This document shows, in pieces, positions 1,143 to 41,167 of a DNA stretch of 64,000 nucleotides (its first letter is position 1; the number at the start of each line of letters is the position of its first letter). The notes under the pieces are model-generated. The model worked only from the letters and a program-made list of their open reading frames with translations, searched no databases and was not told where the DNA came from. The stretch lies in assembly GCA_964544225.1 (NCBI GenBank), contig CAZIZK010000001.1, positions 54,856 to 118,855 of the forward strand, read 5' to 3'. This DNA comes from an uncultured Candidatus Saccharibacteria bacterium (GTDB lineage: Bacteria > Patescibacteriota > Minisyncoccia > Phycocordibacterales > UBA9973). A program made the position numbers and the translations under genes.

Positions 1143-1559
1143 TTATTCATGGCTTTTCTTTTCGTTAATATTTTTAATAGATTTCGACTTAGTAATTGAG
1201 GCAAGCTTAAGTGCCTGTTTTACTATTTTTGCTTGTGATGGAGTAAGTTCTTCTTTGTCTTCTTTTGTTGTGATTTCTATCTTGTCTCGGTAGTTATCAT
1301 TTCTGTGTTTTAACCAAAAAGAAATTGCTGACCAATTTTTCTCTTTGATCATTGTCAGGAGTTGGCTTTCACTCATATCATTCACAAAGGCAACACCCTC
1401 AGACATAGCTTTATCCATTTTGGCAGAGAAAGATTTATCATCTTTTTTCCAACGATATACACTATTTCTAGATACTCCTGTTTTCTCACATGCTACTTGC
1501 ACGATAGGAACTTTTTTCAATTCTTCAAAGAATTGATCTTGTGATTTATTTTTCTTCAT
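1143..1559 (-). CDS. Terminase small subunit-like HTH DNA-binding protein
   Basis: 138 aa with N-terminal HTH (ACEKTGVSRNSVYRWKK), lysine-rich, immediately upstream of terL in the same orientation (TerS-TerL order). Confidence 0.45.
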   Translation of the reverse strand: MKKNKSQDQFFEELKKVPIVQVACEKTGVSRNSVYRWKKDDKSFSAKMDKAMSEGVAFVNDMSESQLLTMIKEKNWSAISFWLKHRNDNYRDKIEITTKEDKEELTPSQAKIVKQALKLASITKSKSIKNINEKKSHE

Positions 1560-2829
1560 AAGATTTTATCTGAGCTTTTTTACCAGTAAATAATTCATAA
1601 CGTTTTATAATCAAATCACAAAACTTTGGCTCTAGCTCTAAGCCATACACTCTTCGACCTAATTGTTCACCTGCAAGGAGAGTGCTACCTGAACCCAAGA
1701 AACTATCTAAGATTATGTCATTTGGCTTTGTACAGCGTTTTATAGCCTTTTCATGGAGGGTTATAGGCTTAGAAGTTGCATGTTCATAATCTTTAGCGGA
1801 AAGTCTTTTAGCAGTCCAAATCTCAAGAAAGTCATCGACTTGTGCTACAAGTTCATTTCCTGTTCCGAATTCTTTATTTAATACCTCATTAAGGGTTGTT
1901 ACTGATTCAGCAAGATAAGGTCGTCCACGAATACCATACACCGCAGGTTCATATGCTTTATTGCAGAATATTTTAGGGACAGGATTTTGCGAATTTTTTA
2001 GCCATAGGCATACTCGTTTATTAGATATACCAAGTGATCTGTATATATCCTGAATTAATCCTATGTAGACTTGATCACAATAATAGAAAACGTGCGTACT
2101 CGGATTAGATACAGTAAGTGCCGATTCTAAACTTTCTCGAATAAATGTTTTATATTCTTCAAAAGTTCTAGAATCTTTTACACTTCCGCCATATTCTTTA
2201 TTTCCACCAATCCCGCCATCATAGTCTATATCTAAGTTATACACTGGGTCTGAATAGATCATTGAAACTTTCTCTTCGCCTAATAACCTTTTTAGATTTT
2301 CAGGTTTAGTTGAATCACCACAAAGAATTTTGTGTTTCCCGAGAATAATAATATCTCCTAATTTTGTTTTAGGTTCCTTTATTTTCTTTAATTCCTTTTC
2401 AACATCGAAAGAATCATTTTTAACTTCTGCATCTTCATCCCAAAATTTTGCAATTTCCATATCTTCAAATCCTGCGAGTTGAAGAAGCTCCATATCAAAA
2501 GATTTAAGAGCTTCAAAGTCCCAAGACCCACCCAATTTATTTGAGGCAATAAGATATTGTTTGGATTCTGATTCTGTGAGTTTACGATTAGGTATCCTTA
2601 CATCAATTATTTCTTCTCCACGATCTAATAGTTGCAAAGCCCTTATTCTTTGATGTCCTGCTAGTATCATTCCATCACTATCAATAGCAGGAATCTCGAC
2701 TAAATTATATTTCTGCAAACTTTTCTTAATATCTGACATTTGCTTGTCAGAAATTTTACGAGGATTGATCTTTTGAGGAATAAGATCGTTAACCTTTCTT
2801 TGGACCGTAGTCCATATGAGTTTACTCAT
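1546..2829 (-). CDS. ParB-like nuclease domain fused to beta-class DNA N6-adenine/N4-cytosine methyltransferase
   Basis: N-terminal ParB-like segment (ILAGHQRIRAL), MTase motif IV-like SDPVYN (DPPY variant) and motif I LDSFLGSGST. Paralogous to 26189..27457. Confidence 0.75.
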   Translation of the reverse strand: MSKLIWTTVQRKVNDLIPQKINPRKISDKQMSDIKKSLQKYNLVEIPAIDSDGMILAGHQRIRALQLLDRGEEIIDVRIPNRKLTESESKQYLIASNKLGGSWDFEALKSFDMELLQLAGFEDMEIAKFWDEDAEVKNDSFDVEKELKKIKEPKTKLGDIIILGKHKILCGDSTKPENLKRLLGEEKVSMIYSDPVYNLDIDYDGGIGGNKEYGGSVKDSRTFEEYKTFIRESLESALTVSNPSTHVFYYCDQVYIGLIQDIYRSLGISNKRVCLWLKNSQNPVPKIFCNKAYEPAVYGIRGRPYLAESVTTLNEVLNKEFGTGNELVAQVDDFLEIWTAKRLSAKDYEHATSKPITLHEKAIKRCTKPNDIILDSFLGSGSTLLAGEQLGRRVYGLELEPKFCDLIIKRYELFTGKKAQIKSYEEK

Positions 2830-2984
2830 ATTATTTTATTAATAAATTTAATAAAATGTATAGAGATAGAAAAAGCCTATTCCGTACACGAAATAAATAA
2901 AAGTCCGATATAACTTCGATCTATTTCTTGCGCGGAATAGGCATGGCTTTTAGGGCGCTACACTACTCGCTTTTTACTACGCAC

Positions 2985-3431
2985 TTATATTTTACCAACC
3001 TGTTCTTGTTTTTCAAGTCTTCTCAATATGCGCCTACCTTTTTTGCTATCCATGAATTCAACTGTATCTTTTCCAAGGAAAACTGGTAATCCTTTTGGCT
3101 TTCTTATAAAAACCCTTTTTCCTTGTTCTCTGTAACGTTGAATCAAAGGCAACATTTCATCTGGATTAAAGATTGGCATTGAAAAAATCACTGTATTGTT
3201 TTCTAAAACCCTGGCATGGTTATTAGGAAAAGTGATTCTCCCAGGTTGATTTGCTTCTATGGAATGTTCAATAGTTTTACTCATCGATTGAGTAACTCGT
3301 GCATTAGTATGGAGTTGAAAGTCAGTCAACTCAATAATAATATCGCCATTGCACGGATCATGAATCGCTGGATGTATTACTAATTTTTCTTCCATACCTA
3401 GAGTATATAATAGGGTGGTGTAAAATGTCAA
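2985..3431 (-). CDS. Hypothetical protein (probable true start at internal MEEKLVIH), divergent from the repressor gene
   Basis: ORF of 148 aa with no recognisable motif. It sits between the MTase and the repressor. Confidence 0.35.
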   Translation of the reverse strand: MTFYTTLLYTLGMEEKLVIHPAIHDPCNGDIIIELTDFQLHTNARVTQSMSKTIEHSIEANQPGRITFPNNHARVLENNTVIFSMPIFNPDEMLPLIQRYREQGKRVFIRKPKGLPVFLGKDTVEFMDSKKGRRILRRLEKQEQVGKI

Positions 3432-3465
3432 ATCTTTATTGCAAAATCGTTTAAACTATGCTATA

Positions 3466-3481
3466 CTGTATCTATGCACAT
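3466..3481 (+). promoter_or_regulatory. Candidate SOS-box-like operator CTGT-N8-ACAT overlapping the repressor start codon
   Basis: ctgtatctatgcacat is one mismatch from the gamma-proteobacterial CTGT-N8-ACAG; tatact (-10-like) lies just upstream. This is a weak call. Confidence 0.2.
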
Positions 3482-4112
3482 AATACAAAAACAACTTTTA
3501 GACTTAATAGCGACACATGAGGACTTTGGATCTTATAGCCTTAGGAAGATAGCTGAAATGGTTGGAGCCAAGGGAAAACCCCAAACTGCCAAATATCACT
3601 TACAACAGCTTGAGAAAGATGGACTAATTCAATTAAACCTTGAGGCTGGAATCATAAAGCTAGTTAAAAGAGGTTATGCTAAAGCTTCTACTAGCCCTAT
3701 CTACTCCCTACCAATAGTGGGATCTGCTAATTGTGGTCCTGCTACTATATTTGCAGAACAGAATGTTGATCAATATTTAAAAATATCTTCATCAATGCTA
3801 CCAAGAAACAAAAGTAATCTGTATGCCCTTATTGCTGATGGAGATTCAATGAATAATGCAGAGGTTGAAGGAAAAACTATTAAAAGCGGAGACTTCGTTT
3901 TGGTCGATAGTGAATATAAGAACTATAAGACTGGTGATATCGTAGTTGCTGTTATAGACAACATGGCAACTATAAAAAGATTCCGAGAAGATAAACCCAA
4001 TAATAGAATTATCCTTGAGGCTGATTCAACAGAAAAATATCTCCCTATATTTATTCATGAAGGTGACAATTTCTTATTAAGTGGAAAAGTAGTCGGTATT
4101 ATTAAAAGTTAA
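3474..4112 (+). CDS. LexA/phage CI-like repressor (N-terminal winged HTH plus C-terminal S24 self-cleaving peptidase)
   Basis: GDSM serine nucleophile and the lysine in TIKRF match the LexA Ser/Lys dyad. The N-terminal segment is HTH-like. It is the first gene of a six-gene operon with 5-23 nt gaps. Confidence 0.8.
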   Translation: MHIIQKQLLDLIATHEDFGSYSLRKIAEMVGAKGKPQTAKYHLQQLEKDGLIQLNLEAGIIKLVKRGYAKASTSPIYSLPIVGSANCGPATIFAEQNVDQYLKISSSMLPRNKSNLYALIADGDSMNNAEVEGKTIKSGDFVLVDSEYKNYKTGDIVVAVIDNMATIKRFREDKPNNRIILEADSTEKYLPIFIHEGDNFLLSGKVVGIIKS

Positions 4113-4125
4113 TTTATAAAAATAT

Positions 4126-4368
4126 ATGTCAAATTATCATGTAACAAACCCAAAAGGTTCAAATGATTGGAAAGTAATAAAAGAAAAAGCAGAAAGAGCT
4201 TCTGTAATAGTAAGCACTCAAAGAGAAGCGGAGAAAATAGCAAAAGAATTATCAGGTAATTCTGGTGGTGGAGAGGTTGTAATCCATAAACCAAACGGTG
4301 GTCCAATAAGAGATAAAGATACTGTAGCCCCAGGTCGAGAAAGTTCAGTTATAGACAAAAAACATTAA
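4126..4368 (+). CDS. Small DUF2188-like protein
   Basis: 80 aa; the pattern YHV..DWKV...A.RASV..T..EA..IA...A...GGGEV.IH resembles DUF2188. Confidence 0.35.
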   Translation: MSNYHVTNPKGSNDWKVIKEKAERASVIVSTQREAEKIAKELSGNSGGGEVVIHKPNGGPIRDKDTVAPGRESSVIDKKH

Positions 4369-4385
4369 AAAATAAATATAAAATT

Positions 4386-4757
4386 ATGAAAAGAATATTT
4401 ATTAGTTTTGCGATTGAAGATAAATTATATAGAGATTTTCTTGTTGGACAATCTAAGAAAGAAGAATCCCCGTTTGAATTTGTTGATATGTCAGTAAAAG
4501 AACCCTGGAAATCTGATTGGAAAGATAAATGTTATTCAAAAATAATAGGTTGTGATGGAGTAATTGGTTTAATAAGCAAAAATACTCCTAAGGCTTCTGG
4601 AGAATTATTTGAGTTAGAATGTGCATATGACGAAAATGTGCCTGTGATGCTAATGTATATTAATGATGATAGACCTGCTCTTCCGTCATTTTTAAACAGC
4701 AAAAGAGTAAACATATGGAGTTGGAGTAACTTAAAATCTTTTATTAGTAACCTTTAA
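4386..4757 (+). CDS. TIR-like domain protein (DUF1863 / ThsB-like)
   Basis: Begins with RIFISFAIED... (FISF plus an acidic residue) and has a conserved Glu in ELECA, as in MTH538/ThsB-type TIR-like domains. Length 123 aa. Confidence 0.5.
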   Translation: MKRIFISFAIEDKLYRDFLVGQSKKEESPFEFVDMSVKEPWKSDWKDKCYSKIIGCDGVIGLISKNTPKASGELFELECAYDENVPVMLMYINDDRPALPSFLNSKRVNIWSWSNLKSFISNL

Positions 4758-4762
4758 TATAT

Positions 4763-5731
4763 ATGCGTAAAGCTCTAATTGTTGGTATTAATAATTACCC
4801 AGGTAATCCACTCAAAGGGTGTATAAATGATGCATCATCATTTAAAACTGTTATTGAGAAAAACGGTGACGGATCACCTAATTTTTCTACAAGGCTAGAA
4901 ACTGATGTTCCTACAAAATCTCAACTCAAAACAATGCTAAAGGAATTATTTGAGGGTGATAGTGACATAGCTTTATTTTATTTTTCAGGACATGGATCTT
5001 TTAATGAATTTGGTGGTTATGTAGTTACCCCAGATCATCAAGAAAACGATGAGGGAGTTTCTATGGATGAAATTTTATTGCTTGCCAATAAGTCAAAAGC
5101 AAAAGATAAAATTATTATATTAGACTGCTGTCATTCAGGTGCATTTGGTTCTCCTGCAAGTACTGGTGGTACATCTTGTCAGATAATCGAAGGTGTTGTT
5201 GTTCTAACTGCAAGCAAATCCAGTGAAAGTGCTATTGAAATTAATGGTCATGGTATTTTCACAAATTTATTGATTGATGCATTGCAAGGTGGTGCAGCTG
5301 ATCTTCGTGGTCATATAACCCCTGGTAGTGTTTATGCATATATAGATCAAGCATTAGGACCTTGGGATCAAAGACCAGTATTTAAGACAAATGTAACTAG
5401 GTTTACATCTCTAAGAACAATAAATCCACAAGTTCCAACTGAAACACTTAGAAAAATAACTGAGTATTTTCAAACAGCTGAGCAAGATTACTCTCTAAAT
5501 CCATCTTATGAAGACACGAATTCGGAAGATATTAAACATTCTATTATTGAACCTCTCGCTAAAACAGAAAATGTTGCAGTATTTAAAGATTTGCAAAAGT
5601 TCCAGAGTGTAGGTTTGGTTATTCCAGTAGACGCACCTTACATGTATTTTGCTGCGATGGAGTCAAAATCATGTAAATTAACAGCACTTGGTTATCATTA
5701 TTGGAGACTTGTTAAAGACGGTAAAATATAA
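4763..5731 (+). CDS. Caspase-like cysteine peptidase (Peptidase C14 / metacaspase-like) with a C-terminal domain of unknown function
   Basis: ALIVGINNY...NDA...FYFSGHG (catalytic His) and IIILDCCHSG (catalytic Cys), the canonical caspase-fold dyad order. The remaining ~150 aa are unassigned. Confidence 0.7.
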   Translation: MRKALIVGINNYPGNPLKGCINDASSFKTVIEKNGDGSPNFSTRLETDVPTKSQLKTMLKELFEGDSDIALFYFSGHGSFNEFGGYVVTPDHQENDEGVSMDEILLLANKSKAKDKIIILDCCHSGAFGSPASTGGTSCQIIEGVVVLTASKSSESAIEINGHGIFTNLLIDALQGGAADLRGHITPGSVYAYIDQALGPWDQRPVFKTNVTRFTSLRTINPQVPTETLRKITEYFQTAEQDYSLNPSYEDTNSEDIKHSIIEPLAKTENVAVFKDLQKFQSVGLVIPVDAPYMYFAAMESKSCKLTALGYHYWRLVKDGKI

Positions 5732-5740
5732 TAATTAATA

Positions 5741-6394
5741 ATGCGGTCTTTGGAACAAGTAGCAAGAAAAATAAACTTCCATATTGAAAAGAAAAAACCA
5801 CCAGTTATTAATGAAAAATGGATTAAAGTAAATTCTCCAGCTTCTTATAAATTCATAATTGAAAATTCTATTGATTGGGACACGGTAACAATAAATCTTG
5901 ATAAGTCATACCAAGGAAAGTGGAATAAGTGTTCTAAAAGAAAAAGATACTTAGATCAAGAATTTTATAAAGATGAGGAAGAACTAAATCAAATATTAAA
6001 TACTCATAAAGATAAACTTTATACTTTTGTAAGTAGAATAAACAAAGAAGATGAACTTGTTTGTGACAGAATAAGTATTTTATTAGTTAGACTAGCTCAA
6101 AAAGGTAATACTCTTGCTTTGATAGAAATTAAAAGCCTATATGTTTTTATAATAGATAAGTGGCTAGAAGAAAGTAAATATTTAAAAAGATGGCGTGGCT
6201 ATGAAGAGGAATTAGTAGCACTACTAGAGAGGTGTATTTTCAGATATAGATACTCTGGTACATTTATTGGTTATTTATATAGAACTCTCCAGTTAAGTGC
6301 TTTAGCTTTAGAGCCATTAGAAGCATATTCACTAAATGACAAGGTCTTTGATGGGAATAAAACCAGAATAGACTTTATATCCTGTGAAAATTAA
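5741..6394 (+). CDS. Hypothetical lysine-rich protein in the repressor/TIR/caspase operon
   Basis: 217 aa, no recognisable motifs; 9 nt after the caspase gene. Confidence 0.4.
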   Translation: MRSLEQVARKINFHIEKKKPPVINEKWIKVNSPASYKFIIENSIDWDTVTINLDKSYQGKWNKCSKRKRYLDQEFYKDEEELNQILNTHKDKLYTFVSRINKEDELVCDRISILLVRLAQKGNTLALIEIKSLYVFIIDKWLEESKYLKRWRGYEEELVALLERCIFRYRYSGTFIGYLYRTLQLSALALEPLEAYSLNDKVFDGNKTRIDFISCEN

Positions 6395-6417
6395 CAGGCT
6401 TTTGATACAATAAACCA

Positions 6418-6921
6418 ATGACTATACTAATTATTTTTGTAATCTTAATGGCGGTTGTTTTTATTGTTTTAAAGAAATTTTTCCCAGATATATTTAATGG
6501 CGAGGAGAAAGTAATTAAGTCTCCATATAATTACAAAAAGAAAGACTTTTTAATGAGTCGTGCTGAACATGAGTTTTTTGATATTCTCATTGAGGTTGTA
6601 GGAAATCAATATTATGTATTTCCACAAATACATCTATCAACTATTTTAGATAATAAGGTTGTGGGACAAAACTGGAGAGGAGCATTCCGTCATATTGATG
6701 AAAAGTCAGTTGATTTCGTTATTTGTGATAAAGCATATATCAAACCAATTCTTGCTATTGAACTTGATGATAAAACACACGAAAGAGAAGACAGAAAAGG
6801 ACGAGATGGAGAAGTAGAACGTATTCTTAAAGAATCAGGTCTGTCTCTTTTAAGGTTTGGTAACAATGGGAGCTTTAATAAAGAAGAAATAAAGCGTTTG
6901 ATCTTAGAGAAATTAAGGTAG
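6418..6921 (+). CDS. Membrane-anchored DUF2726-family protein (PD-(D/E)xK-like nuclease fold)
   Basis: N-terminal TM helix followed by MSRAEHEFFDIL...YYVFPQIHL...VDFVICDK...ILAIELDDKTH...RD..VERIL.ESGL.LLRF, which matches the DUF2726 core. Confidence 0.6.
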   Translation: MTILIIFVILMAVVFIVLKKFFPDIFNGEEKVIKSPYNYKKKDFLMSRAEHEFFDILIEVVGNQYYVFPQIHLSTILDNKVVGQNWRGAFRHIDEKSVDFVICDKAYIKPILAIELDDKTHEREDRKGRDGEVERILKESGLSLLRFGNNGSFNKEEIKRLILEKLR

Positions 6922-7160
6922 GTTTTATATAGAAAAGTTACAGTTGAATGTAACCTTTAACCTCAATCCCGTGTCACTTTTGTCACTTTTCTAATTCGCA
7001 CGAGATACGTCGATTTGATATAATAAAATTATTGGAAATAACGTTACAGGGCTTGTCAGTGAAAAGTCCTAACACGAGTGTCCCCGCATTGACAACCTGT
7101 TAGTTTTGATGACCCATTTAGTTATGTACTAAGTGCGACCCACAAAGCTTCATGTTGCAG

Positions 7161-7191
7161 AAAAAAGAACGACGGTTGTCGTTCTTTTTTT
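7161..7191. terminator. Bidirectional intrinsic terminator
   Basis: aaaaaa-GAACGAC-ggtt-GTCGTTC-ttttttt lies between the convergent genes ending at 6921 (+) and 7200 (-). Confidence 0.8.
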
Positions 7192-7199
7192 GCAAATAA

Positions 7200-8444
7200 T
7201 TAATGCATATCCATAGATTCAGGCATGCTCGTACTACTTTTAATTTCCTTAAATATACTTGGATTTTCATCTCCTGTTACATCAAGTACTGCCCAAGCAC
7301 CTTTATTCATTCTTGCTAGTGCGTGATCTACAAGTAAATATTTACCTGGAACATCAACAGTGAATTCTACAATACTCGCTCCACCAGGAAGTACAGCGGT
7401 TGCTTGTGTATTGTGTTCCATCGCACCACCTATACTTGCATTTGGATACACGGTATCAAAAATCTCACCAATTACATGGAAAGAAGAGATCAGATTTACT
7501 CCACCATTGCCGACATACATACGAATTTTATCACCAACTTTTGCTTGCATTCGTGGTGTTGTTTCGATACGGCCATTGAAAGTTACATAGTTAGGATGAC
7601 CATCGAGAAGGGCATCAGGATCAAATGGCACCAACCCTTTTTTACCAAGCTGTCCAATGGTGTATAGCTCTCCTTGCATAACATAAAATTCTTTATCGAC
7701 TTCTGTAAACCCTTCTTTTGGATCAACTAAAATCATTCCATATTGTCCATGTGAATTGTGTGTAGAAACATTTGGCGTTGCGCAGTGATAAATATAAAGA
7801 CCTGGGTTTAATGCTTTCCATCTGAATGTTTTTGTTTCTCCAGGTGCTACATGAGTAACTGACGCTCCACCTCCTGGACCTGTAACTGCGTGTAGATCTA
7901 TGTTGTGGTCATGTAGACTTGATGGGTCATTTGTCAGTGTTAATTCTACCGTATCCCCCTCGCGTATACGAAGCATTGGACCAGGAACTTGTTTGTTGTA
8001 TGTCCAGTAGTTGAAATAAATTCCAGGAGATATCTCTCCGAGGACTTCTTGTGCAGTCAAACTAATACGCACAATACCGTCTGCGTCAGGTGCTTGTGGT
8101 TTTTCTGGAACAGCTGTCGGATCTGCACCAATATCTGCGACTTTATCGAAACGATTTTCATATCTAAAAAAGTCTATAATTTTAGCAAATGGGATAGATG
8201 GAGGGAGTCCACCCGGAGCGTGTGAATGCACAAATGCTGGCATAGCAAAATCAGGAGGATAAGTTTTGTTTGCCACTAGTCCTGTGAAAAAAGAAATCAC
8301 AATTAGAGCCACTGGAATGTAAAGCCATTTTTGCTTAAAAATTGAATGGAAATGACCTTGTTTCCATATATATCGCACAATTATGACAAAGGCTATAAAA
8401 CCTACTATTCCAGATATCATTTCAAAAATAAGGTATTTAAACAT
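7200..8444 (-). CDS. Copper-containing nitrite reductase (NirK)-like two-domain multicopper oxidase, membrane-anchored
   Basis: N-terminal TM helix; cupredoxin-type ligand motifs HDHNIDLH, YIYHCATP (Cys) and HGQYGM (Met). Confidence 0.55.
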   Translation of the reverse strand: MFKYLIFEMISGIVGFIAFVIIVRYIWKQGHFHSIFKQKWLYIPVALIVISFFTGLVANKTYPPDFAMPAFVHSHAPGGLPPSIPFAKIIDFFRYENRFDKVADIGADPTAVPEKPQAPDADGIVRISLTAQEVLGEISPGIYFNYWTYNKQVPGPMLRIREGDTVELTLTNDPSSLHDHNIDLHAVTGPGGGASVTHVAPGETKTFRWKALNPGLYIYHCATPNVSTHNSHGQYGMILVDPKEGFTEVDKEFYVMQGELYTIGQLGKKGLVPFDPDALLDGHPNYVTFNGRIETTPRMQAKVGDKIRMYVGNGGVNLISSFHVIGEIFDTVYPNASIGGAMEHNTQATAVLPGGASIVEFTVDVPGKYLLVDHALARMNKGAWAVLDVTGDENPSIFKEIKSSTSMPESMDMH

Positions 8445-8665
8445 ATAAAATATTTGTTAACTAATAATGCTTATTAAGACTGGACTAATTAAAATAACTC
8501 TTGCCAAGCAGTAGAGGCCTGTTTCATTATAGCAAAAAATACTTATCCACCGTTGCGCAAAACATAAAAACTTTTGTATAATGGTTTAATAGTTGCGAAA
8601 CTATGCAACTACTCTATTATACACCCCGCTTGTAGTGTTGCCAAGCGGTTTTAACAACTTTCATT

Positions 8666-9211
8666 ATGAATACTATACAAAAGAATTGGTTTAAATATGT
8701 TGTAGGATTTGTTGCATGTCTTCTGATTCGACTTATTCCATTTCGCCCTCCAAATATTGAGCCAATACTCGCAACACAAATGCCATTCTCTAAAGCGTAC
8801 GGGAAGATTGCAGGATTTTTATTCGCATTTTTAAGTATGGTTATATTTGACATTATAACTGGGAAAGTCGGTATGTGGACTTTTATAACAGCTAGTGCTT
8901 ATGGTCTTTTGGGGTTATGGGCATCAATATATTTTAAAAACAAAAATAATAGCTCATGGAATTACGCAAAATTTGCTGTCATGGGAACATTGGCTTTTGA
9001 TATTGTTACAGGACTTTCTGTTGGACCTCTATTTTTTCACCAACCATTTATGGAAGCATTGATCGGGCAGATTCCTTTTACGGCACTTCATTTAATTGGG
9101 AATATTGGTTTTGCAGTAGTATTTAGCCCTCTCTTGTATAAATATGTTATTGAAAATAAAAAGTTTGAAAGTGAATCACTTATAGCAATCTTTAACCCGA
9201 AACAAGCATGA
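8666..9211 (+). CDS. Small polytopic membrane protein, possibly an ECF-transporter substrate-specific (S) component
   Basis: 181 aa, about five or six hydrophobic helices, directly upstream of nrdJ and the cobalamin adenosyltransferase. Substrate unknown. Confidence 0.35.
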   Translation: MNTIQKNWFKYVVGFVACLLIRLIPFRPPNIEPILATQMPFSKAYGKIAGFLFAFLSMVIFDIITGKVGMWTFITASAYGLLGLWASIYFKNKNNSSWNYAKFAVMGTLAFDIVTGLSVGPLFFHQPFMEALIGQIPFTALHLIGNIGFAVVFSPLLYKYVIENKKFESESLIAIFNPKQA

Positions 9212-17120: not shown

Positions 17121-18449
17121 TTATTTTACCAATGTAATCTTCTTATCATTCAGCACCAACCTACTCCTCAAATGTCCCATCAGTTCACGCTTCTCTAGTG
17201 GTGTGCCTTCCCTCAGCACATACTTGGCATACTCTCTTGTATTCACGTCATCTTCGTTGATGTTGTATTTTGGCGTTCCCTTGGTTGCCAGTCGTTGCAG
17301 TCTATTAAATCGCTTGATTTCTTCTTCAAGCTTGATTCGCATACCTAGTTCGTTGATGCTTACTTTATCTATGACTTTGAATAGCTCCTCAATCAGTTCT
17401 TCCTCTCGTATATATTTATTCTTGCAATTCCTGTCTCTTGCCTTTGAACAGGAGTAGTAGACATACTTGGCGGTCGTTCCATCTTTGAGTTCCTTGTACT
17501 TCTCCTGTGCCGTTATACCTGACTCACACATTCCGCAGGTAAATAGTTTAGTAAATGCGAACTCTCTGTTTTCTCTCACAATCCTATCTCGCTTTAAATG
17601 TGATTGGGCTTTTTCAAATAATTCTTTGGTGATGATTGGTGTATGACTTCCTTGATACCAGTTGTCACTATTTCTCGGATATTCAAATGGTCCATAATAG
17701 ATTGGCATTTCAAATATTCGATACACTCCTGATAGTGTAAGGGGCTTATTTCCTCGAGTGTAGAAATTCAGATCGAATCGCAACCAGTTATATACCTTTC
17801 TTCCGCTCCATCCATCGTATGCAACTTTCTCAAACATTTGTTTGATTACATGAGCCCGATCTGGGTCAATAATTATCTGACACTTCCTATCCATTAACTT
17901 TTGATTCAAATATCCAAGCGGTGCCATTCCAGGCCATAGCCCCATCTCTACTCTCGTTCGCAATCCTCGCTTTACATTGATGCCTCTGTTGTCGTTCTCA
18001 AGTTTCGCTTGGCTTCCCAATATCATCAGGAGAAACTTCTCGTTTGGATTGTTTCCGAATGTCTGCCCGAAGGTTCGTATCATGTGCAATTTTCCTGCAT
18101 CCATCAGGTCTACGATTTTTCCCAAGTCTCCTGCATTTCTTGAGATACGATCTGGTGCCCAAGTAAGTATCGCATTGAATTTCTCTTGCTTGAGTTCCTC
18201 AATGATTTCGTTGAAGACTGGTCGCTGTCCTGTTTCCTTTGCACTATGACTCTCACGCTTCATGGTTACTACTTCAAGCCCCTCACGATCCGCTAATTGG
18301 AGCATCTCGCTAATCTGGCTATCAATACTCAATACCTGCCGTTCCTCAGACTCTGTTGATTTTCTTGCGTATAAGCAATATCTGATCTTCTTTGGTTCGA
18401 CTACTACTTTTGCTACACCTTGCTCCATATTTGGGTTTTCTATCTTCAT
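17121..18449 (-). CDS. Large serine recombinase (resolvase/invertase N-terminal domain plus recombinase and zinc-ribbon domains)
   Basis: N-terminal YARKSTESEE...SIDSQ (catalytic Ser region), C-terminal Cys cluster CGMCESG...YSCSKARDRNC. Confidence 0.85.
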   Translation of the reverse strand: MKIENPNMEQGVAKVVVEPKKIRYCLYARKSTESEERQVLSIDSQISEMLQLADREGLEVVTMKRESHSAKETGQRPVFNEIIEELKQEKFNAILTWAPDRISRNAGDLGKIVDLMDAGKLHMIRTFGQTFGNNPNEKFLLMILGSQAKLENDNRGINVKRGLRTRVEMGLWPGMAPLGYLNQKLMDRKCQIIIDPDRAHVIKQMFEKVAYDGWSGRKVYNWLRFDLNFYTRGNKPLTLSGVYRIFEMPIYYGPFEYPRNSDNWYQGSHTPIITKELFEKAQSHLKRDRIVRENREFAFTKLFTCGMCESGITAQEKYKELKDGTTAKYVYYSCSKARDRNCKNKYIREEELIEELFKVIDKVSINELGMRIKLEEEIKRFNRLQRLATKGTPKYNINEDDVNTREYAKYVLREGTPLEKRELMGHLRSRLVLNDKKITLVK

Positions 18450-18592
18450 ATCTACATTGATGACGCAAATCGTCCAAGGAGCCTAGAGCGTCCCATTGCC
18501 ATAGTGTTGGTAACTAAAACGCCTTTATTTAAGGGTCATTTTTTGGTAAAATGTATTTACTGGCGTAAGAAACTTATGCCTAATATTAAAGT

Positions 18593-21112
18593 ATGAAAAT
18601 TTTTATTCGCAATAATTTATATCGCTCAAAAAAATTTTGGCTCATAAAAAAATGGTTTGAAGAAAAACCAATTTTTAGCTTTTGGGCAAAGATCTTTAAA
18701 CTCGACTTTAATATAAATAAGGGTAAATATTCGGCACGCTTATTGTGGCCTTCAATTTTTCCATTCATTCGGACACTTATCTATTCTATTTTTATAATCG
18801 CAATTTTTGAAACGTACAGTTACTTTTTTCCAGTGGATCAAAAAATATTTAGTGATCAGGTTACTGATACACTACTTTCGGCGATTGCCAGTGTATCCGG
18901 TGTATTCCTTGGTCTTTATTTTACGGCTGTTTCCAGTATCGCAAGTAATTTTTTATTACGTGCCACTCAAAATATAAGGCGCTACTTCCTTTCGACTCCA
19001 ATTGGAGAACAATACGTTAGGACCGTAGCCCTTACGGGTATCATAAGTATTTTTTATCTGTTGGCAAAATCGTTTGGACACCCAATACACCCAGTTGGCT
19101 TAGTATTTCTTTGTATTGCTGGAGCATATATCATAATCAGATTTTGGAGTGTTGGATCAAATGTTTTCTATTCATTGGAACCAACTGTTGCCCTGCCTTC
19201 AATCGGTAAAAACATTGCAGACCTATTGAAGGGGGTTACGCCACCGGGTTTTAAATGGGATAAACCAGCAATACAAAATCATCAAAGACGCCTAGTGTCA
19301 GACAATTTGGAGCTTGCTAAAGACCTTATTGATTTTGGAATTAAAGAGATAAAGCTTTCAAATGAACAATTACATATTGCTCTTCGTTATTTAGGTGGTT
19401 TGCTTTTTTTATATCCTCAATACAAGAAGAAGATACCGACTAATAGCTTTTGGTTCAAAACAAAAAATCAGTACGATAGTTGGACCTTAGCGGATTCAAC
19501 ACAAATCGCGCTTGCCTTAAACACTGGCACAAGTTTGCAACCCAAGACAATCAAAGATTTTACTTGGTTTGAAGAAGAAACTTTGGATATGAGTGTAAAG
19601 ATTTTTGAGTTTTACGCCAAAGAGAAAAATGTTGCCTCTGTATTCCAAGGACTAGAACTTTTTGTAGAAATCGCTGAAGTTTATGCGAGTGAGTTTGATG
19701 AGGAAGGACTAAAGCTTCTTTTACAGAAAACAGAAAAGGTTGCAGGATTGGTCGACCTAGAAAAAGTAGCAGATCCAAAAAATGTTCGGTACAAAGAACA
19801 AATGGCTTTTATTGATACTCAAGGCCGGTTAGCTATAGGGGCGGTGCTTGGATTGGCTAGGTATCTTGATACTGCTTCTGCGGAAAGCTTATCCACGACT
19901 ATTTCAAATATTAAGTGGTATTCAAATAAAAACATTTATCTTACAGGGCTACCTTTGTCGGTTCTATCGCGTCTGGAATCTACTGCAAGTGATTTAAAAG
20001 CTGAAATGCTAATTGAGGGTAGGCAGCTTTCCCCTGAGTGGTATATACGCACTCTTTGCGTTCAGAAATACTTATTCGCACTCTTAGGTTATTTCAAATA
20101 TCTAAAAACCCTTCATTCAACTTACTTTGAACCAAAGCTTGGAAAATTGCTTGCCGAGGATCAATTAGGTCTTGCTGTTCAATTGGTGCAACGCTGGATC
20201 GAGTTTACTCACAAATATAATCGGCTCGTTGGATTGATTGCAAAACATATTGAAGATTGTGTACCTTATCACCAAGTCAAAGATCTTTCTTGGATAGAGT
20301 TTAGTGCAGACGAAGAGTATAAAACCGCAAGGGACCGCGAAAAAGAAGTAGCCGATAAAATGATTAGATTGTTGCCTCGATTAATGACAATGCCTACCGA
20401 AAGCGATATGCCAGACTACTTTGGGCAAGCTCTTACGCAAGGCGTTCAGGCCTGTTATGAGGCGTGTGAGGAGAACGACCCAGTCAGGTTGAAAGCAATA
20501 TTCCCGGTTGTTTTTATAGCTTCACTTTCGGCTTTTGATATGACGAGAGTGAGAGTTCAAAACTGGTCCGAAGAACAAAGCAAAATAATCTATTCAACAG
20601 AACCTCTTATAAATCTCTACGAACTAAGTGGATTTGCTAAATTGTATTCAGAGCTCTACCAAAACACGGAGCTTTGGAATGTTGTGCAAACACCGTGGGA
20701 CACTTATTTGGGTGGTATCGATGCCGTACAAGAAATTACACGCATCGCGGCCATTACTAACTATCGACGTGGACTTTTCATGATCATGCCACAAGCAACC
20801 TTACGAACAAACTGGCAAATGCGATTTAGTAATAAAATGAGAGAACAAGGTTTAGCTGTTTTCCCCGATAGTAGAAGCTATGACTATGTAAATGGCCGAG
20901 AAGATCCTGCGCATGCGAGCGCGATTATTCGTGTAGTTACTCGATCAGGTGGTTTGAGTTTATCTACAGGTCAGACCGTATTTTTCGTAACATATTTATC
21001 CCAACACCCAGGGGCAACAGGAATTGATCTACCAGACCAACGCGACATGAGAGAACAAATACAACGAGAAGAAGAAAGATCTAATGAGGAAGAAAATAAT
21101 GACTATGAATAA
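18593..21112 (+). CDS. Large hypothetical protein (839 aa), N-terminal multi-TM anchor plus large soluble region, acidic C-terminal tail
   Basis: Long intact ORF with four predicted N-terminal helices and no recognisable catalytic motif. Visibly GC-richer than its neighbours. Confidence 0.5.
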   Translation: MKIFIRNNLYRSKKFWLIKKWFEEKPIFSFWAKIFKLDFNINKGKYSARLLWPSIFPFIRTLIYSIFIIAIFETYSYFFPVDQKIFSDQVTDTLLSAIASVSGVFLGLYFTAVSSIASNFLLRATQNIRRYFLSTPIGEQYVRTVALTGIISIFYLLAKSFGHPIHPVGLVFLCIAGAYIIIRFWSVGSNVFYSLEPTVALPSIGKNIADLLKGVTPPGFKWDKPAIQNHQRRLVSDNLELAKDLIDFGIKEIKLSNEQLHIALRYLGGLLFLYPQYKKKIPTNSFWFKTKNQYDSWTLADSTQIALALNTGTSLQPKTIKDFTWFEEETLDMSVKIFEFYAKEKNVASVFQGLELFVEIAEVYASEFDEEGLKLLLQKTEKVAGLVDLEKVADPKNVRYKEQMAFIDTQGRLAIGAVLGLARYLDTASAESLSTTISNIKWYSNKNIYLTGLPLSVLSRLESTASDLKAEMLIEGRQLSPEWYIRTLCVQKYLFALLGYFKYLKTLHSTYFEPKLGKLLAEDQLGLAVQLVQRWIEFTHKYNRLVGLIAKHIEDCVPYHQVKDLSWIEFSADEEYKTARDREKEVADKMIRLLPRLMTMPTESDMPDYFGQALTQGVQACYEACEENDPVRLKAIFPVVFIASLSAFDMTRVRVQNWSEEQSKIIYSTEPLINLYELSGFAKLYSELYQNTELWNVVQTPWDTYLGGIDAVQEITRIAAITNYRRGLFMIMPQATLRTNWQMRFSNKMREQGLAVFPDSRSYDYVNGREDPAHASAIIRVVTRSGGLSLSTGQTVFFVTYLSQHPGATGIDLPDQRDMREQIQREEERSNEEENNDYE

Positions 21113-22151
21113 ATACTTTAAAAAAATTAAAGAGGTGGTGTTGGCCTACTTAAAAGATCCTCTTTTATTGCGAAAGTGGGATCAACCAGATTATTACCGA
21201 TATAGAGGACGTGGTGATAATAATAATCAGTTGTCATTCAGGAGTTCACGAAACAGACGTCACAGGTACCATTATCACGGTACGTCTTCAATGTTCATTG
21301 AAGATATGTTTAGCGGAATAATGCCGTTTATGATTTATAGCGGCGTTAGAGAAAAGTATCCTGCAAAAATTGAACCAGCCGCACCCGATAAAGAAGCAAT
21401 AATTGCTCAAGGTCTTTCTGGTCGCAGGCATCGAACAGCATTAGGTGAAGGTCTTTGTGATTTTGTGCGTGATACAGCACATGTGCTTTTTCAAGACGGC
21501 TTAGCAATATACGAAATTATTTATAAAAAGAACGAAACTGGAGAAACCGAAAGCTATAGCTTTGAATTAATGGATCATTATGGTCTATATAGATTTTTTG
21601 GTAATTACTATCAATTTGTTTCTTGGGCTGATGCAAAGGCTTCACATACCAAAGTTCAAATAATCAAAATACCAAAAGAAAAAGTATTACGCATCGAGTT
21701 CCCAAAAGAACTCGGCGGGCAAAAACGTATCAATAAAATATTAAAGCGATCATGGGAACTCGGACAAGAGATTATTCCTAAGTTTCAAATGGACGCAATG
21801 GAAAAACAAGAAAACATTGGCTTTGATTCAAAGATATATACGGAAGCAAAGTATTTAGAAATTGCGACTCTTACAAAAGACTTGGGATGGAACCAGCGCC
21901 AGTTATCAACCAACCATATTACGGAATATTATGCCCTTCTACGTCTTCTTAGGCAGAAAAAAGTAGAAGCTACTGTTCGAGAAAAGATTTTTACCAAACT
22001 TAATGAAGTCTTAAATGGATCAGTTTTAAACTTTGACGCTCAAGTTTCAATGGATAATCTTTTTACAGCTTCTGATATTGATGCACGTGTCAAAAAACTT
22101 ACAGAAGGTAACACAACTTTTATTGATTTGTTTACTGATACAAGTTTTTAA
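21084..22151 (+). CDS. Hypothetical protein (355 aa) overlapping the preceding gene by 29 nt; Arg/His-rich low-complexity N-terminal region
   Basis: The overlapping start implies translational coupling with the 839-aa gene. Confidence 0.45.
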   Translation: MRKKIMTMNKYFKKIKEVVLAYLKDPLLLRKWDQPDYYRYRGRGDNNNQLSFRSSRNRRHRYHYHGTSSMFIEDMFSGIMPFMIYSGVREKYPAKIEPAAPDKEAIIAQGLSGRRHRTALGEGLCDFVRDTAHVLFQDGLAIYEIIYKKNETGETESYSFELMDHYGLYRFFGNYYQFVSWADAKASHTKVQIIKIPKEKVLRIEFPKELGGQKRINKILKRSWELGQEIIPKFQMDAMEKQENIGFDSKIYTEAKYLEIATLTKDLGWNQRQLSTNHITEYYALLRLLRQKKVEATVREKIFTKLNEVLNGSVLNFDAQVSMDNLFTASDIDARVKKLTEGNTTFIDLFTDTSF

Positions 22152-22244
22152 GATTTGAAATTTAGCTGTTGGTAACTCTACTACACAATGAACTCAATCT
22201 AAGCTAAAGTACAAAAATGCCCCTGAAAATGGTATAATTCGTTC

Positions 22245-22447
22245 ACAATTTAATAACAGACCTAACCCCTCAATTTATTGAGGATATGGTCGCAAAATCC
22301 GTCCAAAGTAAAGAACTCCTAGTCAGAGTCTACTTTGGACGGTCATATCTGGAAACGGGTATGGGTATACCTCACGGGGTATATCGGATCTGGCTAGGAG
22401 CTTTTTGCTACCTATACGGTCCTTCATAACAAAACCGTCCAAAGTTT
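22245..22447 (+). other. Structured 5' leader or candidate ncRNA with an extended -10 (tggtataat), a perfect 12-bp inverted repeat and a direct repeat of ccgtccaaagt
   Basis: ccgtccaaagta-N20-tactttggacgg; a second ccgtccaaagt lies 10 nt before the ATG of the 22448 gene; cctcaa-ttta-ttgagg hairpin. Confidence 0.3.
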
Positions 22448-23365
22448 ATGAAAAATCTTTTAGAAAAGTTTAAACAATTATCTCTTTTTAAGCAGATAAT
22501 TATTGTTCTTGTTGTTCTTACTATTGTTATAGTTAATTTTGATTTATTTAAAAACCTCGTTTACATAGGTCTTGTTGTTGGTGCAATTTATCTTTTATTT
22601 ACTAAAGTATTCAGATCACCAAAAAGAAAAGGACTGGATCTATATTCTCAAAAAATCAAAGAACTTTTAATTGATGGCAATTTGTCAGAGGAAGACAAAA
22701 TAATCCTAGAACAGATTAAAAAAGAGAATAATCTAAACGATAAAGATGTCGAGAAATACAACTTGGCAGGATTCAAAACTTTCTTCGATAAAATTACAGA
22801 TGATTCACGAATTTCAGAAGAAGAAAGAAAAGAACTTGTTAAGATATATTCTGATCTAAATCTGCCAACAGATAAACTCGCATACAGTCAAAGTGATTTT
22901 AATAAATACCATACGCTTCATTTGATAGATCAAGGGACACTTCCAACTATTGATGTACCCAATCTAAATGTTAATTTAAAGGCAGACGAAAAACTGCATT
23001 ATGTAAATAAGGCATTTATTGTTAAAAATAAATCTATAACTACAGGTATTAATTATAGTGGTCTTTCTGGTTCTATTAAGATTGCAAAAGGAATACGCTA
23101 TAGAATCGGAAGTATGAAAATTGCTCCACAGAAAGTAAATGTAATGATGACTGATGATGCAGGTACTTTCTATTTAACAACAGAGAATCTTGGTTATATT
23201 GGTCTTAACAAGCACTTCAGTATGTCATACGACAAAATATCTTCTCTAGATGTTAGAGAAGGATTTTTGTACCTATACAAGAAAGGAAAAGAAGGACCAT
23301 TTATTATTTCAATGGATGATTTTGAACTACCGCTTGCGATTGTTTCTTTCAAGATAAATGAGTAA
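22448..23365 (+). CDS. Hypothetical membrane-anchored protein (two N-terminal TM helices)
   Basis: 305 aa ORF, no recognisable motifs. Confidence 0.4.
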   Translation: MKNLLEKFKQLSLFKQIIIVLVVLTIVIVNFDLFKNLVYIGLVVGAIYLLFTKVFRSPKRKGLDLYSQKIKELLIDGNLSEEDKIILEQIKKENNLNDKDVEKYNLAGFKTFFDKITDDSRISEEERKELVKIYSDLNLPTDKLAYSQSDFNKYHTLHLIDQGTLPTIDVPNLNVNLKADEKLHYVNKAFIVKNKSITTGINYSGLSGSIKIAKGIRYRIGSMKIAPQKVNVMMTDDAGTFYLTTENLGYIGLNKHFSMSYDKISSLDVREGFLYLYKKGKEGPFIISMDDFELPLAIVSFKINE

Positions 23366-23373
23366 GTTTTGTT

Positions 23374-24870
23374 CTATCTTTCCATCTCTTTAAACTTCTC
23401 AGAATATTTTTTAGTAATGTCGTCGACATCTTCGCTAACACCAAGATCAAACATAAAACACCCCTCTGTAATTTCAAGAGTATATAGAAAAGATTCCTCT
23501 ATATAAAAGCACTCCATTGCTGTATCTAGAAGCATACTTAAGCTGTTATTAAGTAGTAATACTTCATCTTGATATGAATCAATGAAACTTTTATAGTGTT
23601 CAGTCATATCAATATCAAATATAGACGAGACTTTTTGAGCCAATTCTTTGAACTCACATAGTGTTCGGTAATTCTTGATTGGCATTGCATGCTTTTTTAC
23701 GAAAAGGAACATGTTTGAAATCGGCATAAGTAATTCGACTTGCTGTTTGTATTCTTTAACAAAGTCAATATTTTCTTTGCAGTTATATAAACTAATGCCA
23801 GTTATAATCTGAACTTGTCTCTGCATCCCCAAGAAATCCTTTTCAATTGTTTGTTCCGTAAGCGAGTCAGTATCAAATAATTTTTGAAAATACTGTTTTG
23901 ATTTTTGCAGTTCAGTATACCAAGCTATAAATAATTCTTTGTGATTATTTTTTGTGTTTCCATTCCATGTATCAAATCTTTCACTCATAAAAATCGTTGA
24001 ATATTCTTTTGTAAACAAACCGTCATCTAGCCATAGAAATATCTTTTCTTTAATAAGAGATTCTATGCTTGTATTTTTACTCTTTGCATATAATTCAATT
24101 GCAGATAATAGTCTTTCTTCAAATTTCTCATCTTTGTCCATGTACGCAATATGAAGATCATCAGCTAGTTTGATGAAAATCTCTTTAATAGGAAGTTCAG
24201 CAAAGAAAACATGGAGTAAGAAGCCATCTTTTTCTGCTGTACTGCGTTTTATCTTCTTTGCTCCCTCATAATACATACGCGAATAAATACGATCTATGAT
24301 TAGGTCTTTGTCTTGTTTAGTGAGAGTATCTCCATTTTTAAATCTTTCATAAAGAAAAACCTGCTCACTAAGGTAGTTATGATCACTGGCTGATCCTTCA
24401 TCTAAAAGAAGCAAATCACTTTGAATGTCTTTTGGAAGATTATTGAAGGTAAATATATGCAGTACTTTTGCGTATTCTAGATAGGTTTGTGCCGTAACGA
24501 ACTTTATACTTTCTTCATGGGAAATGTCTTTTAAAAATTCAGTCTCAACTTTTTCTTTAAATTTTCTCGCGTGAGAGAGGAGGCTATCAACAACTCTCTG
24601 ATTTCGCAAGAGAGATACTTCGGATCTATACAAAAACATTTGAGCATCCATTTTCATGGCATCTTCAAGCTGAACAATATTTATGTATTTGTTGTATTCA
24701 ATTGCTTCTAATCTACTCGGCATCCATCCTTTAGTTAGAATATATAAATCAGATTCCGAAAGGTGTCCCTTACCAGTCTTTTCTCTGTGAATATCATTAT
24801 GAACAAGTGCTTTCACTCGTTCAAATGGAGTTATGTTTGATCTTCTTAAAATATTGGTGAGACTTTTCAT
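23374..24870 (-). CDS. Hypothetical protein (498 aa)
   Basis: Long AT-rich ORF with no recognisable motifs. Confidence 0.4.
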   Translation of the reverse strand: MKSLTNILRRSNITPFERVKALVHNDIHREKTGKGHLSESDLYILTKGWMPSRLEAIEYNKYINIVQLEDAMKMDAQMFLYRSEVSLLRNQRVVDSLLSHARKFKEKVETEFLKDISHEESIKFVTAQTYLEYAKVLHIFTFNNLPKDIQSDLLLLDEGSASDHNYLSEQVFLYERFKNGDTLTKQDKDLIIDRIYSRMYYEGAKKIKRSTAEKDGFLLHVFFAELPIKEIFIKLADDLHIAYMDKDEKFEERLLSAIELYAKSKNTSIESLIKEKIFLWLDDGLFTKEYSTIFMSERFDTWNGNTKNNHKELFIAWYTELQKSKQYFQKLFDTDSLTEQTIEKDFLGMQRQVQIITGISLYNCKENIDFVKEYKQQVELLMPISNMFLFVKKHAMPIKNYRTLCEFKELAQKVSSIFDIDMTEHYKSFIDSYQDEVLLLNNSLSMLLDTAMECFYIEESFLYTLEITEGCFMFDLGVSEDVDDITKKYSEKFKEMER

Positions 24871-24871
24871 A

Positions 24872-25069
24872 TCATTTGTTTTTTCTTAGTGCATTTTCCA
24901 AGAACTCGACCCGTTCTTTAAGTTCTGTGTTGACTATATTTTTTGAAAGCGTAGAAGTAAGCTTAGCAATCATAGATGCCTGCTTGAGTGACATTTCCTT
25001 ATTCATCACTTTACGGATGGTGTCCGAAAGAATGTTATTTATCTCTTCTAGATTAATTGGTTTAGTCAT
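24872..25069 (-). CDS. Small hypothetical protein (65 aa)
   Basis: One nucleotide from the neighbouring gene. Confidence 0.3.
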   Translation of the reverse strand: MTKPINLEEINNILSDTIRKVMNKEMSLKQASMIAKLTSTLSKNIVNTELKERVEFLENALRKNK

Positions 25070-25070
25070 A

Positions 25071-25445
25071 CTAGTTATTTTCTACGATTTCAAACCAAGC
25101 TCTCACTTCATGAGCCTTGCCACTTTTAATAATGTTTTTGTAGAGTGCAAAGATAACATTTGGGGTTAACTTTCTTGCCCAAGAATTTATATCCTGAACT
25201 AATCCGTCTTTCTCAAGTCTTTTGTTCCAATCGGTAAGCGTTCCGACATCGATGTTATATTTTTTTGAGAATTCTAGTTGTGTTTTAATTGCGAGTAATT
25301 CAAACACAGTTTCTTCTTCAATGCCAAATTTCTCGAGTGCTACTCTTGGTTGCCCCTTAAGAAACGAAGGAAGGGACTTCCAAAGAGCGTAAGTCTCGTA
25401 GACTTGCTTTTTATATGGATCTTTAGAAAAATCTTCTTCCTGCAT
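25071..25445 (-). CDS. Small HTH-containing protein, possibly terminase-small-subunit-like or a regulator
   Basis: 124 aa; an HTH-like segment directly upstream of the two MTase genes, mirroring the TerS/MTase arrangement at 1.1-2.8 kb. Confidence 0.3.
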   Translation of the reverse strand: MQEEDFSKDPYKKQVYETYALWKSLPSFLKGQPRVALEKFGIEEETVFELLAIKTQLEFSKKYNIDVGTLTDWNKRLEKDGLVQDINSWARKLTPNVIFALYKNIIKSGKAHEVRAWFEIVENN

Positions 25446-25452
25446 ATATCAC

Positions 25453-27457: not shown

Positions 27458-27632
27458 AGTGTTAATTCAGAAGAGGGTCTTAATAATGCTCTTCTACCCT
27501 TATTCGTCATTGAATGACAAAATGACAATTTCTTTTTATTATCTAAAATGAATTACTGAAAAATCCTTAATACAAAAGACCTTTTGCTCTTTGGAACAAA
27601 AGGTCTTTATTTCGTCATTTAAAACCAGATGA

Positions 27633-28328: not shown

Positions 28329-28409
28329 ACCCTAATTATATCAAAAATTGGCATTTGTTGGCATTTGCCTATCCCTGTTTACTCTCGGATTTTAAACCCC
28401 AAATGAGTC

Positions 28410-36689: not shown

Positions 36690-36694
36690 TATTG

Positions 36695-40761: not shown

Positions 40762-40771
40762 TAAATACATG

Positions 40772-41161: not shown

Positions 41162-41167
41162 CAATTT

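Follow-up and report, generated by a model that had tools for sequence, protein, structure and literature searches.

A TIR-caspase gene pair on an apparent Patescibacteria mobile island is very likely an intact copy of type IV Thoeris

The closest described counterpart of the gene pair considered here is type IV Thoeris, described by Rousset et al. (bioRxiv 10.1101/2024.10.24.620036; cited in a later preprint as Science 387:510-516, 2025). In the validated systems the TIR protein makes N7-cADPR upon phage infection, and a filtrate (<3 kDa) of infected cells that carry only the TIR is enough to render the protease active, whereas filtrates are inactive when the TIR carries E79Q or the cells are uninfected (10.1101/2024.10.24.620036). 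The E79Q mutation of PsTIR, the TIR protein of the Pseudomonas system, abolishes defence, and the products of PsTIR and of EcTIR, its E. coli equivalent, both activate PsCaspase (10.1101/2024.10.24.620036). The activated effector cuts a large number of proteins, EF-Tu and RplE among them, and does so strictly after arginine, with the outcome that the cell dies or is arrested and zero progeny phage are released; cloned alone, homologous systems protect against phage T6 (10.1101/2024.10.24.620036). That the C-terminal domain of the effector binds the signal in a dimer is a hypothesis of the same authors, whose Table S1 includes several Parcubacteria and Nomurabacteria genomes (10.1101/2024.10.24.620036).

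We have analysed a stretch of 64,000 nucleotides (the window, by which we mean the whole of this DNA), in which an open reading frame of 123 aa (4386-4757) is followed by another of 322 aa (4763-5731). An earlier note on this DNA had picked out these two reading frames and the 5 nt between them, and both the coordinates and the spacing were verified; the two frames are intact and keep the canonical adjacent order (Table 1). We think it very likely that they represent an intact copy of type IV Thoeris, in which a signalling nucleotide made by the small TIR protein would switch on the caspase-like protease. The system is one that has already been described, which the earlier note did not recognise.

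Table 1. Positions of the gene pair and its neighbours in the window.
Feature	Position	Strand	Details
terS-like HTH protein	1143-1559	-	PHROG terminase-small matches; divergent arm
ParB-N6/N4 DNA methyltransferase	1546-2829	-	divergent arm of island
orf148	2985-3431	-	136 aa per gene callers; divergent arm
LexA/CI-like repressor (HTH + Peptidase S24)	3474-4112	+	PF00717 E 9e-21; phrog_4 repressor; first of gene string
DUF2188 gene	4126-4368	+	80 aa, 18 nt upstream of TIR gene; PF09954 E 3e-18; PADLOC PDC-S16 E 3.5e-14
TIR gene (thsB-type)	4386-4757	+	123 aa; putative signal-producing, infection-sensing component; predicted catalytic Glu E76
Effector (ThsE) protease domain, caspase-like Peptidase C14	4763-5305	+	residues 1-181; dyad H77/C123
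Effector C-terminal domain	5306-5731	+	residues 182-322 plus stop; proposed N7-cADPR-binding/dimerisation part
orf217	5741-6394	+	217 aa, 10 nt past caspase stop; island cargo
DUF2726 gene (nuclease-fold)	6418-6921	+	PF10881 E 1.5e-28; last of gene string; island cargo

The smaller protein, which begins MKRIFISFAIED, obtains only sub-threshold Pfam scores when searched alone, both for PF08937 (ThsB_TIR; E 0.036, 14.9 bits against a cut-off of 21.2) and for PF05014 (nucleoside 2-deoxyribosyltransferase; E 0.012, 16.2 bits against a threshold of 28.8), and its assignment as a TIR domain therefore required independent support. A single-sequence search of the PDB returned non-significant matches only. 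Its family is far more informative: the homologues found in a database search number more than 1,300, many of them with a PF08937 match of their own, and among 30 diverse members PF08937 is matched by 28 and TIR_2 by 20 (E <= 0.01). When a profile of the family is compared with solved structures, it matches the Bacillus cereus TIR 8fz9 (E 1.9e-5) and EcThsB2 8v6t (E 6e-5). The AF2 model (pLDDT 87, pTM 0.82) has the strand-helix alternation of a flavodoxin-like fold, and in Foldseek its best match is again 8fz9 (TM 0.78), followed by the TIR domains of MyD88, SPARTA, ThsB and SARM1. The conserved glutamate that the earlier note had seen in the motif ELECA is the first of the two, E76, which is invariant across 30 homologues; E78 varies. 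Despite its weak single-sequence Pfam score, the identification of the 123-aa protein as a TIR domain, which that note had proposed, is solid. The deoxyribosyltransferase assignment was rejected, given that PF05014 falls below its gathering threshold; the folds are related, yet by structure the protein comes closest to TIR domains.

The larger protein matches Peptidase_C14 (PF00656, E 1.6e-20) over residues 1-181, which bears out the caspase fold that had been read from its SGHG and DCCHSG motifs. Within these motifs H77 and C123, the second cysteine, are invariant among the caspase homologues, while C122 is variable and is replaced by serine in the E. coli and Pseudomonas homologues. Foldseek places the N-terminal half of the AF2 model with the MALT1 paracaspase, caspases and metacaspases (E ~1e-7); the model as a whole has a pLDDT of 66 and is poor at residues 129-223. 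A single-sequence PDB search with the effector gave only weak metacaspase matches (E ~1e-3), and our search of the PDB found no solved structure of any type IV Thoeris effector. The structural comparison that had been suggested as a check came out as anticipated for both proteins, the TIR model matching ThsB and SARM1 and the N-terminal half of the effector matching metacaspases. In an alignment to T. brucei MCA2, C123 falls at the catalytic position 213 (the mutated position of the C213A chain), and D23 and D121, which are acidic and invariant in the caspase family, align with the aspartates that flank the metacaspase active site. We take those MCA2 residues to line the pocket that accepts basic P1 residues, and the conservation of D23 and D121 would be compatible with such a pocket, lending indirect support to a specificity of the effector for arginine at P1.

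Residues 182-322 match no Pfam family, just as the earlier note had left this part of the protein unassigned. They nevertheless belong to a conserved full-length architecture, as phrog_18397 matches the effector end to end (residues 1-320, E 5e-86). The same segment aligns without large gaps to homologues from E. coli, Proteus, Pseudomonas and Bacillus, and its invariant positions include W201, Q203-R204-P205 and F207-K208-T209-N210.

The published detection rule for type IV Thoeris calls for a short TIR gene (ThsB/TIR_2 profile) adjacent to a caspase-like gene, allows no more than one intervening gene and applies a lenient i-Evalue of 0.1 (10.1101/2024.10.24.620036); in the window the spacing is 5 nt and the PF08937 match of the TIR protein lies within the lenient limit. 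PADLOC 2023 contains a generic 'caspase' model only and called no system for the pair. The TIR protein can be compared directly with validated PsTIR, also of 123 aa, by translating the cloned Pseudomonas sp. 1-7 sequence (Table S2 of 10.1101/2024.10.24.620036); the two are 39% identical over 123/123 residues (E 1e-32), and E79 of PsTIR aligns with E76. For the effector we used close proxies of PsCaspase and EcCaspase, and not the validated sequences themselves. The Pseudomonas proxy, locus L006 from an uncultured Pseudomonas, encodes a TIR 96% identical to PsTIR, followed by an adjacent gene for a 328-aa caspase that shares 46% identity with the effector over residues 1-322 (E 9e-105). In that alignment C123 pairs with C129 of the proxy, and C129A is the catalytic mutant of PsCaspase studied by Rousset et al. 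(10.1101/2024.10.24.620036). The E. coli proxies, L117 and L118, are IMG/VR contigs whose TIR protein is the same as EcTIR at all 133 residues available for comparison; directly downstream they encode a caspase 42% identical to the effector over residues 1-322 (E 2e-82). By BLAST there is no significant match between EcTIR and the 123-aa protein. Three further loci were retrieved from organisms in Table S1, and their caspases are 67% (Algoriphagus faecimaris DSM 23095), 51% (Roseovarius marisflavi DSM 29327) and 47% (Sphingopyxis sp. H050) identical to the effector. Judged from these alignments, the pair retains the residues at which mutations destroy defence by the validated system, and every defining feature of type IV Thoeris that can be assessed in this manner is present. 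The identity to validated proteins is only 39-46%, and so the signal molecule and the specificity of the protease could differ from those of the validated systems.

The association of the two genes is widespread. Of the first 85 related loci, 82 carry homologues of both proteins, and wherever coordinates were examined the two lie next to each other; such pairing is far beyond chance. Across 121 loci there is no third conserved gene beside them, and the cleavable gasdermin-like substrate that the earlier note had thought worth seeking is found nowhere among the neighbours. A dedicated substrate of this kind would be unnecessary, given that the validated effector cleaves promiscuously after arginine. 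Homologous pairs also occur on plasmids and predicted prophages; on plasmids of E. coli, Proteus and P. aeruginosa, a 'TIR domain-containing protein' is annotated ahead of a 'caspase family protein'.

In the window the pair sits within a string of six tightly spaced genes on the + strand, in the order S24 repressor, DUF2188, TIR, caspase, orf217 and DUF2726. Opposite to these runs a divergent arm (1143-3431, - strand), which also matches phrog_498 (E 2e-84). Nucleotide similarity to the closest relative, the island at L086, extends from 1709 to 7088 and then ends, and in the metagenomic relatives L088 and L092 the same island backbone adjoins large serine recombinases. These two observations, the bounded similarity and the recombinases, lead us to see the gene pair as cargo carried by a mobile island or by the remnant of a prophage. 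orf217 has no family match in any of the profile libraries searched, and its homologues are confined to L086/L087 (94% identity), with none in the other 119 loci; the DUF2726 gene likewise has a counterpart only in L086/L087 (97%). Both were rejected as components of the system, being restricted to this nearest island, and in L088 the caspase gene is followed instead by a PycTM gene and others.

Comparison of individual genes with these relatives reveals a mosaic. Relative to L086, identity is 89-97% for the flanking proteins, 82% for the caspase and just 64% for the TIR; relative to L088, the TIR is 91% identical and the flanks 59-64%. From these identities it appears that islands have swapped the TIR gene or that it evolves faster than the other genes, and either would fit a sensor that determines specificity, as expected.

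The S24 repressor is probably transcriptional context and not a core component. It resembles LexA (TIGR00498 lexA, 85 bits) at a score under the 111-bit cut-off. An S24 gene is adjacent to the TIR-caspase pair in all Patescibacteria-type contexts examined, lying on the same strand in the window, L086/87, L088, L091 and L092 and divergently in L090, L066 and L062; beside the pairs in the Bacteroidota-type defence islands L093-96 it is absent. Promoter- and terminator-like matches within 2800-7300 are no more numerous than in shuffled sequence, and it is therefore from spacing that we infer co-transcription of the pair with the island's S24 repressor, which the gene context makes probable. DUF2188 has been listed as a putative Thoeris effector in a preprint of December 2025 (10.64898/2025.12.03.692087), and the DUF2188 protein encoded here is possibly an accessory, a candidate for a second Thoeris effector, although an optional one, since the closest island, L086, shows a clean absence of the gene. 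One might imagine that in Patescibacteria islands the S24 autoprotease repressor controls, or is co-transcribed with, the TIR-caspase pair, and that DUF2188 acts as a second effector or as a modulator responding to the same TIR signal. We offer this combined proposal tentatively and consider it rather unlikely; if true, the S24-regulated unit would couple expression of the pair to lysogeny or DNA damage.

By homology with the validated systems, the pair is predicted to work as follows. Phage infection would cause the 123-aa TIR protein to turn NAD+ into N7-cADPR by means of E76; this molecule would bind the effector, the C-terminal domain within a dimer being the probable site; the H77/C123 protease so activated would cleave many cellular proteins after arginine; and the infected cell would arrest or die ahead of the release of phage progeny. 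The earlier note had offered activation of the protease by a TIR-derived signal as the first of two options, and this coincides with the published mechanism of the type to which the pair is assigned by sequence. Its picture of a minimal pair without an obvious sensor has to be amended, for in this family it is the TIR protein itself that responds to infection.

N7-cADPR is most likely the signal at this locus, given that the Ec- and Ps-type TIR proteins, unrelated by BLAST, nonetheless both activate PsCaspase, and that the C-terminal domain of the effector is well conserved. It could be argued that the TIR subclade found here makes some other ADPR-derived nucleotide, one to which the effector C-terminal domain would be adapted, since the TIR protein shares only 39% identity with PsTIR, and one TIR cluster is known that mixes type I and type IV configurations (10.64898/2025.12.03.692087). 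Yet EcTIR and PsTIR are clearly of different subfamilies and both yield an activator of PsCaspase, the effector C-terminal domain is well conserved relative to both validated lineages, and in some loci, such as L091, a Ps-type and an Ec-type TIR surround a single caspase; we regard a different signal as improbable.

The second option of the earlier note reverses the polarity, making the protease the sensor or activator, which would cleave the TIR protein and so release an NAD+-depleting toxin. TIR proteins do serve as NADase effectors in CBASS, Pycsar and pAgo contexts (10.64898/2025.12.03.692087). This option does not survive the results for the validated homologues, in which the small-molecule filtrate of infected, TIR-expressing cells is sufficient to activate the protease and E79Q yields no activator; moreover, the model of the 123-aa protein has no extra domain or cleavable linker on which a protease might act, and we give the reversed arrangement next to no credence. 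A further view is that the module serves the island and not the host, as an addiction or stabilisation cassette or as a lysis or abortive switch linked to the S24 repressor, with defence as a secondary effect. The position of the module directly behind a CI/LexA-like repressor on a mobile island, in all Patescibacteria-type contexts seen, would suit such a role, as would the homologues on plasmids and predicted prophages; against this, defence systems are typically found on mobile elements, clones of the homologous systems alone give protection against phage T6, and an antitoxin-like partner is absent. We consider this view very improbable, and defence by type IV Thoeris remains our preferred reading.

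With regard to mechanism the locus adds little, as signalling from TIR to caspase was published in 2024/2025 and the catalogued members number hundreds, bacteria of candidate phyla included. It is probably best seen as a clean, intact and very AT-rich copy of type IV Thoeris on a small Patescibacteria mobile island. The comparison does indicate that in Patescibacteria type IV Thoeris is repeatedly accompanied by an S24 repressor, and in some cases by DUF2188, and that the TIR gene is seemingly the exchangeable and fast-diverging part, as expected of a sensor. The S24/DUF2188 association and the divergence of the TIR gene could guide work on regulation and on the evolution of specificity.

The arrangement of the locus has analogues in other systems. 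In phage lambda, the rexA and rexB genes form an abortive-infection module that lies directly behind, and co-directional with, the prophage repressor cI. The layout of the S24-TIR-caspase genes is similar; the proteins are unrelated, and co-transcription in the window is deduced from the spacing and the lack of a convincing terminator. Like the gasdermin-associated caspase-like proteases and the PCaspase and CHAT proteases of type III CRISPR systems, the pair would employ a caspase-fold executioner in abortive infection; PCaspase is a promiscuous protease, possibly cutting after Arg (10.1101/2024.10.24.620036). Unlike those systems, the pair has no gasdermin, CRISPR-Cas, SAVED or CHAT partner gene, and activation in type IV Thoeris is by a nucleotide signal as opposed to proteolytic processing or a dedicated substrate. 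A gasdermin system was rejected, as the neighbours are the S24, DUF2188, orf217 and DUF2726 genes and no gasdermin gene is among them; so were a CHAT or CRISPR protease system, for which profile searches of the neighbouring proteins did not find the defining genes, and the EACC1-associated caspase (NCBIfam NF047832), which scores 102.8 bits against a cut-off of 140.

Type I and type II Thoeris share with type IV the underlying logic, in which infection is sensed by a ThsB-type TIR protein, whose ADPR-derived signal activates a cell-killing effector. They differ in the effector, which is the ThsA SIR2-SLOG NADase or a Macro-TM membrane protein in place of a caspase-like protease, and in the signal, which is gcADPR or His-ADPR in place of N7-cADPR. 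Type I was rejected for this locus, there being no SIR2 or SLOG match among nine neighbouring proteins. Within type IV, the E. coli 328 system (EcTIR and EcCaspase) has the same gene order, and its effector is homologous from end to end, at 42% identity via L117/L118; EcTIR belongs to a different TIR subfamily from that of the window, and the contigs that carry it are viral according to IMG/VR. The Pseudomonas sp. 1-7 system is separated from the pair by its level of identity (39% for the TIR protein and about 46% for the effector through its close proxy) and by the setting of the window pair, which lies inside the longer S24-DUF2188-TIR-caspase-orf217-DUF2726 string, probably in a Patescibacteria host as judged by how its nearest homologues are named, and is known here from its sequence. 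In other respects the two are closely alike: each has a 123-aa TIR gene directly upstream of a gene for a protease of ~325 aa, the TIR proteins are of the same subfamily, the effectors consist of the same C14 domain and a C-terminal domain that belongs to no family, the catalytic Glu, His and Cys are common to both, and both are found on mobile DNA or defence islands.

The first island of the window, which carries the TIR-caspase pair of type IV Thoeris genes, is a mosaic (1546-6921). Compared with the closest island among the retrieved loci (L086), its flanking proteins are 89-97% identical, the caspase 82% and the TIR 64%; compared with L088, a second related locus, the TIR is 91% identical and the flanks 59-64%. 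Judged on these identities, the TIR gene looks like a module that is either exchanged or evolving fast. Downstream of the caspase, orf217 and the DUF2726 gene (Table) are 94-97% conserved and confined to L086 and L087, and in L088 they are replaced by a PycTM gene and others; the position after the caspase therefore looks like a variable cargo slot. Upstream, the DUF2188 protein has a PADLOC hit to candidate PDC-S16 (E 3.5e-14), and a preprint counts DUF2188 among putative Thoeris effectors (bioRxiv 10.64898/2025.12.03.692087). Its gene is cleanly missing from L086, and in L088 and L066 it likewise lies immediately upstream of the TIR, the L088 copy being divergent in sequence.

Table. Features of the first island and of the second, mobile-element-like region, in window coordinates
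Feature	Position	Strand	Location
Promoter-like match, 11/12	3431-3402	-	S24/orf148 intergenic region
Promoter-like match, 9/12, with extended TG	3439-3467	+	S24/orf148 intergenic region
LexA/CI-like HTH-Peptidase_S24 gene	3474-4112	+	Adjoins TIR-caspase pair
DUF2188 gene, 80 aa	4126-4368	+	Between S24 repressor and TIR gene
orf217, 217-aa ORF	5741-6394	+	10-nt gap after caspase gene
DUF2726 (nuclease-fold) gene	6418-6921	+	24-nt gap after orf217
Large serine recombinase	17121-18449	-	Second mobile-element-like region
Two adjacent DNA methyltransferase-like genes	25453-27457	-	Second mobile-element-like region

Positions 1-1142, which precede the terS-like gene on the left, contain no long ORF, and no recombinase belonging to the first island is present within the window, unlike L088 and L092, which have one; the island may be truncated, or may reach past the window start. 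The region at 17121-28856, several ORFs of which have no family match, looks like a second mobile element, and shares ~73% nucleotide identity with the left flank of L086. Elsewhere, the window encodes a tRNA-Ile with the anticodon TAT (36694-36768, -), which is uncommon among bacteria, and a tmRNA (40771-41162, +) with the tag peptide ANKVASVKSPYAFAFSGSALSFA.

Most of the viral matches (n=25) carry a TIR of the Ec type, and not of the Ps type to which the window TIR belongs. Three viral contigs of IMG/VR (L117, L118 and L119, at about 7589-8963) bear a TIR that, over the 133 residues available, shares 98-100% identity with EcTIR, the TIR of the validated type IV Thoeris system of E. coli 328; that system therefore appears to be located on predicted prophage DNA.

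Promoter-like matches face each other at 3402-3467, in the intergenic region that separates the S24 gene from orf148, a divergent ORF. The listed TTG start of orf148 falls on the -35 hexamer, and gene callers give a 136-aa product in its place. The S24 gene lies immediately beside the TIR-caspase pair in all Patescibacteria-type contexts examined (the window, L086-L092, L066 and L062), on the same strand as the pair in five and divergent in three, and is absent from the Bacteroidota-type islands L093-96. This distribution suggests that expression of the TIR and caspase may be linked to the S24 repressor, as in lambda cI-rexAB.
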